From Thermoplasmata archaeon (GTDB lineage Archaea; Thermoplasmatota; Thermoplasmata; GCA-020350865), in contig CP070751.1 of NCBI GenBank assembly GCA_020348445.1, positions 2,181,186 through 2,245,185 on the forward strand: a stretch of DNA of 64,000 bases, written 5' to 3'. The position numbers and the translations under genes were made by a program. Below, in pieces: positions 10,492 to 11,059 of this stretch. Below the pieces are notes generated by a model, which was given only the letters and a program-made list of their open reading frames with translations, made no database searches and had not been told where the DNA came from. How positions within the stretch are numbered: position 1 is the stretch's first letter; every line of letters starts with the position of its first letter.

Positions 10492-10725
10492 GATATCCTA
10501 AATCCATTCTGGGGTATTAATCGTTTCTACCTTTTTTTTATCATCCAAAATATTTGAGAATGATATCTCTTCCTTCCCCTACGCTTACCCCCACCATCGT
10601 GGCCTATTATGTATTCTAAATAGTAAATTCATAGACCACTTTGCCCTTCGGTTATGCTATAAAATAAATATATCTTAAGCCTCAGGACTCCCACCCTTTA
10701 ATTTAACTTGCGACATAGGATTCCT

Positions 10726-10740
10726 AAAAACATTATATAT
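10726..10740 (+). promoter_or_regulatory. Putative BRE/TATA promoter of the tRNA gene
   Basis: AAAAAC followed by ATTATATAT, ending 31 nt upstream of tRNA base G1. Confidence 0.55.
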
Positions 10741-10771: not shown

Positions 10772-10898
10772 GGGCCGATGGTCTAGGGGTTAGCGGGTGA
10801 TCCCTGCCCTCAGATGACGTCGCGCTTACAACCGCAGAAATATCATTTACCTGCGGAAGGAAACGCGGAGGTCGCCGGTTCAATTCCGGCTCGGCCCA
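10772..10898 (+). tRNA. tRNA-Val(UAC) with two introns (10792-10813 at 20a/21; 10831-10862 at 37/38); CCA not encoded
   Basis: Acceptor stem GGGCCGA/TCGGCCC+A, T-arm GCCGG-TTCAATT-CCGGC and anticodon arm TCGCG-CTTACAA-CGCGG after splicing. D-arm GTCT-AGGGGTTA-TGAC after splicing. Both inserts fold into bulge-helix-bulge motifs. Confidence 0.9.
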
Positions 10899-10912
10899 TT
10901 CTAATTTTTTAA
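10899..10912 (+). terminator. Oligo-T terminator candidate after the tRNA
   Basis: TTCTAATTTTTTAA immediately after the discriminator base. Confidence 0.5.
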
Positions 10913-11045
10913 CACCATTATACATGAGCCTCACCTGGACATGATCGAAATTAATTTATGTGAAAGGTGTTGTGAAATGCTTATTATCTCCTTTCATCCT
11001 CTTGCGAATTTACACTCATAAATACTTGGATCTTAAGCTTCGCAA

Positions 11046-11059
11046 TCCGGCTCGGCCCA
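11046..11059 (+). repeat. 14-bp direct repeat of the tRNA-Val 3' end (att-like)
   Basis: TCCGGCTCGGCCCA is identical to 10885-10898. Confidence 0.85.

Follow-up and report, generated by a model that had tools for sequence, protein, structure and literature searches.

Archaeal EndA acts on a substrate of defined geometry, in which a 4-bp helix (H) lies between two 3-nt bulges and cutting takes place after the second nucleotide of each bulge. In the strict form of this motif, called BHB, both bulges and all four pairs are present. It is flanked by an outer helix (h) and by a helix inside the intron (h').

Two introns in a single tRNA gene have been described for the pre-tRNA-Glu(UUC) of M. kandleri, which carries a D-loop intron at 20b/21 together with the canonical intron at 37/38 (Kaneta et al. 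2018, PMC5829648). The D-loop intron is relaxed and is cut poorly by EndAs that have no specificity loop (PMC5829648). Intron-rich sets of tRNA genes, with several introns per gene, have been tied to EndAs with L1, L2 or L3 inserts (PMC5829648, PMC12397907), and inserts of the CSL/ASL type are linked to the cutting of relaxed or non-canonical introns (PMC5829648). Specificity loops are carried by EndAs of the (alpha-beta)2 and epsilon2 types in TACK, Asgard and ARMAN archaea (PMC5829648, PMC4090602, PMC12397907). Searches of open-access papers turned up none on intron-rich tRNA genes of Thermoplasmata.

The window analysed here is a stretch of 64,000 nucleotides from the genome of a Thermoplasmata archaeon (contig CP070751.1, positions 2,181,186 to 2,245,185), hereafter G000. 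Judging from its sequence and from those of its relatives, the segment 10772-10898 (plus strand) is very probably a functional, vertically inherited tRNA-Val(UAC) gene with two BHB introns. Like the M. kandleri tRNA-Glu(UUC) gene, it belongs to a euryarchaeal-type lineage, is interrupted immediately 5' of A21 and at 37/38, and coexists with an EndA devoid of specificity loop. The two-intron layout itself is, as this likeness indicates, already known. There are, however, three differences. The D-loop intron of M. kandleri is of the relaxed HBh' type, whereas both 3-nt bulges can be drawn in the Thermoplasmata gene. In M. kandleri, EndA assembles as an (alpha-beta)2 heterotetramer, whereas that of G000 is one chain with two repeats. 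Finally, M. kandleri has a single non-canonical intron (PMC5829648), whereas such introns are common in G000.

As in TACK, Asgard and ARMAN archaea, single tRNA genes of G000 can hold more than one BHB intron, non-canonical positions recur, and introns are present or absent depending on the relative, but the EndAs of those groups contain CSL, ASL or L3 inserts that are lacking in the G000 enzyme. As in Asgard tRNA genes, the introns escape standard annotation, often as an enlarged D loop (bioRxiv 10.64898/2026.10.13.758758). For the Asgard archaea, which form a different phylum, repeated gains were argued in this preprint, whereas the pattern in the genus of G000 fits losses better; Thermoplasmata are not mentioned in it.

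Anatomy of the tRNA-Val(UAC) gene

The exon and intron coordinates of the preliminary description, as well as the parts that it had assigned to both BHBs, were found to be the same when the sequence was read again. The features of the gene and its surroundings are:

10725..10740, plus strand: putative BRE/TATA-like promoter, TAAAAAC plus ATTATATAT, roughly 35 nt upstream of the mature 5' end
10772..10791, plus strand: exon 1, acceptor 5' strand, D-stem 5' strand and D loop to U20a
10792..10813, plus strand: intron 1, 22 nt, BHB, in the D loop at 20a/21, immediately 5' of A21
10814..10830, plus strand: exon 2, A21, D-stem 3' strand, anticodon-stem 5' strand, anticodon UAC and A37
10831..10862, plus strand: intron 2, 32 nt, BHB, at the canonical site 37/38, central helix with 3 of 4 bp
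10863..10898, plus strand: exon 3, A38, anticodon-stem 3' strand, variable loop, T arm, acceptor 3' strand and discriminator A
10899..11059, plus strand: conserved element of about 147 nt, outside the tRNA, then a 14-nt copy of the tRNA 3' end
10905..10910, plus strand: oligo-T run

The D loop has no position 17 (A14 G15 G16 G18 G19 U20 U20a A21) and intron 1 is therefore placed at 20a/21. Once both introns are removed, the product is a 73-nt cloverleaf that ARAGORN calls as tRNA-Val(tac) across its full length. It is composed of a 7-bp acceptor stem, U8, A14, G18 and G19, a 5-bp anticodon stem, U33, the anticodon UAC, a T loop reading GTTCAAT, and A as discriminator; CCA is absent from the encoded 3' end. 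The Rfam model RF00005 matches 10772-10898 (plus strand) over model positions 1-71 with 43.1 bits (gathering score 29), a value obtained on a short stretch with permissive filters. Its alignment contains an insert of 26 nt in the D loop, where the consensus has 3, and another of 33 nt after position 37, where the consensus has 1. Taking at least two separate introns as the definition of a multi-intron tRNA gene, the G000 Val(UAC) gene has two. Its exons resemble those of the Val(GAC) and Val(CAC) genes that lie outside a tRNA array of the same genome (see below). Its identity as a tRNA-Val(UAC) with one intron in the D loop and another at 37/38, proposed from the first, is upheld by ARAGORN, by RF00005 and by the joints of orthologues.

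Simple tRNA finders had been expected to miss or mislabel this gene, and they do. Over the whole window there was no match, at the gene or elsewhere, in a default ARAGORN run, nor in an Rfam run at gathering threshold with default filters. The single-intron search (ARAGORN -i) labels the gene as Asp(atc), and a half-spliced form of it is called Ser(tga). The gene is also absent from the whole-genome list of 57 RF00005 matches.

In the BHB of intron 1, h is TA/TG (2 bp), H is GGGG/CCTC with one G.U pair, and h' is GCGGG/CCTGC (5 bp), while the bulges are TT-A and AG-A (the hyphen marks the predicted cut). In that of intron 2, h is TCGCG/CGCGG (5 bp), h' is CCGCAG/CTGCGG (6 bp), the bulges are CA-A and AA-A, and the central helix CTTA/AAGG forms three of its four pairs, with one A.A mismatch. 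Intron 1 has both 3-nt bulges and the 4-bp helix in full, intron 2 is slightly relaxed, and in both introns h and h' have at least 2 bp. Cutting at the bulges gives a canonical cloverleaf with the same joint as in intron-less orthologues, and either boundary can be moved by one A with no change in the product. When the introns were shuffled in place, the observed quality of H and h' was reached in 152 of 200,000 trials for intron 1 and in 14 of 200,000 for intron 2. The BHB parts of both introns are far better than in shuffled introns.

Neither intron had a paralogous copy elsewhere in the genome when searched by BLAST, and there is thus no sign of recent intron transposition. A role of the introns as carriers of guide RNAs was discarded, since both are too short and inspection by eye saw no C/D boxes in either of them.

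With respect to expression, the TAAAAACATTATATAT block upstream of the gene (10725-10740) is a putative archaeal BRE/TATA promoter. A AAAAACATTA(A/T)ATA block is located at equal distance upstream of the orthologue in G001, G003 and G004, three genomes of the same genus, and a CTAAACATTTATAC block upstream of the orthologue in family f9. The T run at 10905-10910, read directly, is likely to be an archaeal transcription terminator; equally placed T runs are present in orthologues.

Two further elements flank the gene. The 14-nt copy of the tRNA 3' end, TCCGGCTCGGCCCA (11046-11059), is exact and recurs, together with the element of about 147 nt, 3' of the orthologue in G001, G003 and G004. A related form of the element occurs in family f9 (G012 and G110). 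In one of its stems, compensatory changes maintain the pairing (CTTGCGA/TCGCAA versus CCTTGG/CCAAGG), and its 5' end (GGGCC...) resembles an acceptor 5' strand. Roughly 70 nt upstream of the tRNA lies an intergenic repeat of about 120 nt (about 10576-10704), which is repeated at 15 or more other places of the genome with 73-88% identity and has no convincing fold (z-score -0.01).

Splicing enzymes and rival readings

The genome of G000 encodes both EndA and RtcB, each by a single gene. The RtcB ligase scores 599 bits. The EndA is a protein of 362 aa in which PF02778 and PF01974 are each found twice (two N+C repeats). Direct reading of its first repeat shows no Tyr/His/Lys catalytic pattern; the enzyme is accordingly alpha'2-like. 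The best match among solved structures is the fused M. kandleri EndA (PDB 5x89). The catalytic repeat is collinear with the loop-less M. jannaschii EndA (1a79), without insert, and has gaps of 7-11 residues at the loops of the A. pernix (3p1z_B), S. tokodaii (2cv8) and ARMAN-2 (4fz2) enzymes, and alignment found no specificity-loop insert (CSL/L1, ASL/L2 or L3) in the catalytic unit. Since both introns of Val(UAC) are near-strict BHBs, this gene alone is not in conflict with a strict enzyme. A special EndA architecture was rejected as an explanation of the layout: EndA genes of about 360 aa, with a similar two-repeat organization, are present in most sampled families of the class, including those whose Val(UAC) has no D-loop intron or no intron at all.

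The anatomy of the gene, its exact junctions (from intron-less orthologues), its covarying structure and the presence of EndA and RtcB are established. We infer that the Val(UAC) precursor is actually transcribed, cleaved and ligated, in the following way. Transcription would begin from the BRE/TATA promoter and terminate at the oligo-T run, and the precursor would display two independent BHBs, one at 37/38 and one in the D arm with its cut immediately before A21. EndA, of which there is one, would cleave each 3-nt bulge after the second nucleotide, RtcB would ligate the three exons into the 73-nt tRNA, and CCA would be added afterwards. The preliminary description had considered that both sites could be processed in an obligatory order. 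The nucleotides of the two BHBs are disjoint and each local fold survives the in silico removal of the other intron; therefore, nothing points to such an order.

It could also be that the D-loop intron is relaxed in vivo, with the 5' bulge and H present and the 3' site paired, so that cutting would be inefficient or would depend on another factor, on the tertiary folding of the tRNA or on the earlier removal of intron 2. A preferred order of splicing or a regulatory bottleneck would follow. The MFE of the precursor calculated with ViennaRNA (-57.6 kcal/mol, compared with -49.6 kcal/mol for the BHB-competent fold) speaks in its favour. In the MFE structure GUCU (10-13) is paired with AGAU (41-44), a helix in which the 3' site of intron 1 is hidden, and the base-pair ensemble likewise prefers this helix over the D stem, with probabilities of about 0.9. 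Besides, the outer helix h has just 2 bp, the EndA of G000 is devoid of CSL/ASL-type loops, and the loop-less enzymes of A. fulgidus and M. kandleri cut the D-loop HBh' of M. kandleri poorly (PMC5829648). However, the same energy model also misses the D stem of the mature tRNA and is a poor judge here, and for this reason the MFE was given little weight and set aside as evidence against a BHB in the D arm. The GUCU/AGAU helix, moreover, needs the G of the terminal AG and is not conserved, because the same-genus genomes G002 and G004 have AA instead. As the two BHBs also have no nucleotides in common, a relaxed D-loop intron seems to us unlikely, and two BHBs cut independently by one EndA is the reading that we prefer.

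The genome contains a second gene with the anticodon TAC:

4640897-4640970 of the genome, minus strand: intronless Val(UAC) gene of the tRNA array, RF00005 47.4 bits

It is part of a dense array of about 24 tRNA genes for most amino acids (genome 4640571-4643566, ~3 kb), several of them atypical and a few with introns. The 3.2-kb array region found no match in four genomes of the same genus, one of them a single contig. Its neighbours are of accessory type: a HEPN/nucleotidyltransferase pair, a KAP NTPase and surface proteins. The array possibly originated from a mobile element or a virus.

It is highly improbable that the window gene is decaying or silent and that GUA is read by the array gene: although the latter exists and passes RF00005, it has a very different sequence, it ranks last of all genes in the census for conserved tRNA features (17/25), it sits in a region that is unmatched in the genus and flanked by accessory-type genes, and the window gene keeps perfect exons, BHBs and its putative promoter and terminator, and has orthologues across the class. 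On the same grounds the array gene was rejected as the housekeeping gene. The preliminary description had foreseen that a second Val(UAC) gene beside a silent window copy would overturn its reading. The second gene does exist, but its divergence, its atypical features and the lack of a match to the array in four sister genomes mean that it does not make the window copy look silent. The vertically inherited Val(UAC) gene is the window copy, a real gene that probably has a housekeeping role.

Intron layouts in the genus and in the genome

Orthologues were sought by a DNA search of 40 relatives followed by a splice-and-fold pipeline, and Val(UAC) was recovered in many of them. The intron layouts are:

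G000 (source genome): D loop and 37/38
G001 (same genus): 37/38 intron alone (33 nt); GGTT-ATGAC across the D loop
G002 and G004 (same genus): three introns, in the D loop, at 37/38 and in the T loop at 59/60
G003 (same genus): T-loop intron (59/60) alone; reads TTACA-ACGCGG
G012 (family f9): D-loop intron alone
Several other families of the class: no intron, or an intron of 14-15 nt at 37/38

Intron 1 is missing in G001 and G003, which both read GGTT-ATGAC (here the hyphen marks the joint), and intron 2 is missing in G003 and in many other families, which read TTACA-ACGCGG. These intron-less alleles are natural spliced products and they confirm both predicted joints. The survey of Val(UAC) across Thermoplasmata relatives, suggested in the preliminary description, thus found the joints to be exact in orthologues that miss one intron. 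Exon 1 has the same sequence in G001, G002 and G004 and, within the genus, exons are identical or 1-2 bases apart while introns diverge; in G012, too, the exons are the same or nearly so.

When 401 genomes of the class were scanned by pattern, the D-loop intron of Val(UAC) was detected in nine: three of family f1 (including G000), five of the 13 sampled from f9 and one of five from f17. In these nine orthologues, a D loop with GGGG faces an intron strand reading CCTC, CCCC, CTCC or CCCA, and one with GTGG faces CCGC, ACGC or ACAC; pairing is kept in h' even though its sequences are unrelated. Read from these alignments, the structure of the D-loop intron is conserved through covariation. Within the genus, D-loop introns have common ends, AGCG at the 5' side and GCC(C/T)CA at the 3' side.

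The five genomes of the genus exhibit four layouts of Val(UAC): D+A+T in two of them, and D+A, A or T in one each, where D stands for the D-loop intron, A for that at 37/38 and T for that of the T loop. The RtcB proteins of the sister species are 86-90% identical to that of G000, and the RtcB tree places the three-intron G002 and G004 outside the clade of G000, G001 and G003 (support 96/96). On this one protein tree, with two unresolved forks, the simplest reading is an ancestor with all three introns, in the D loop, at 37/38 and at 59/60 of the T loop, followed by precise losses. In such a scenario, the T-loop intron would have been lost precisely in G000, those of the D loop and T loop in G001, and those of the D loop and 37/38 in G003.

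The tRNA genes of G000 were also surveyed by a census that combined RF00005 matches, two custom anchor scans, a BHB-guided enumeration of splice sites and an ARAGORN check of the products. By this census, whose calls are doubtful at a few loci (e.g. 1361225, 3438893 and 5100033), at least six tRNA genes outside the array have two or three introns. Introns recur at three sites:

Just before A21: Val-UAC, Val-CAC, Lys-UUU, Thr-GGU and Ser-GCU
37/38: many genes
59/60: Met, Glu-UUC, Arg-CCG, Gly-CCC, Lys-UUU, Val-CAC, Cys and Arg-GCG

The D-loop introns of Arg-CCG and of the initiator tRNA are located farther upstream than the A21 site. All three Val isoacceptor genes outside the array are interrupted. 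One of them is the following:

4300906-4301046 of the genome, plus strand: tRNA-Val(CAC), with introns of 30 nt in the D loop and 35 nt in the T loop (59/60)

This gene is not in the whole-genome RF00005 list either. The preliminary description had called multi-intron tRNA genes uncommon in euryarchaeal-type lineages. The two-intron Val(UAC) is no rarity among the tRNA genes of G000, and its layout has been published for a euryarchaeon, M. kandleri (PMC5829648). The gene is ordinary within its own genome, and its interest comes from the lineage context and from the orthologue series. As to the genome itself, G000 is a single contig of 5.16 Mb and carries about 2 Mb of extra DNA compared with a single-contig genome of the same genus of about 3.2 Mb.

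Significance for Thermoplasmata

Since default tRNA finders are blind to the Val(UAC) gene, the genomes of this group will appear to be short of a decoder for GUA. The gene also provides a clean case of an intron at a non-canonical position in a lineage whose EndA lacks a specificity loop. The orthologue series is more useful than the single gene, as it constitutes a natural experiment on precise intron loss.

More tentatively, and with slightly more doubt than confidence on our part, tRNA introns may have spread in this Thermoplasmata genus at three hot spots, much as in lineages with loop-bearing EndAs, with a fast and precise turnover between species, alongside a loop-less two-repeat enzyme as the only EndA. 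If this is true, the idea that EndA loops and intron richness co-evolve would not hold in general, and the four layouts of Val(UAC) among five species would make this gene well suited to testing how introns are lost and gained.
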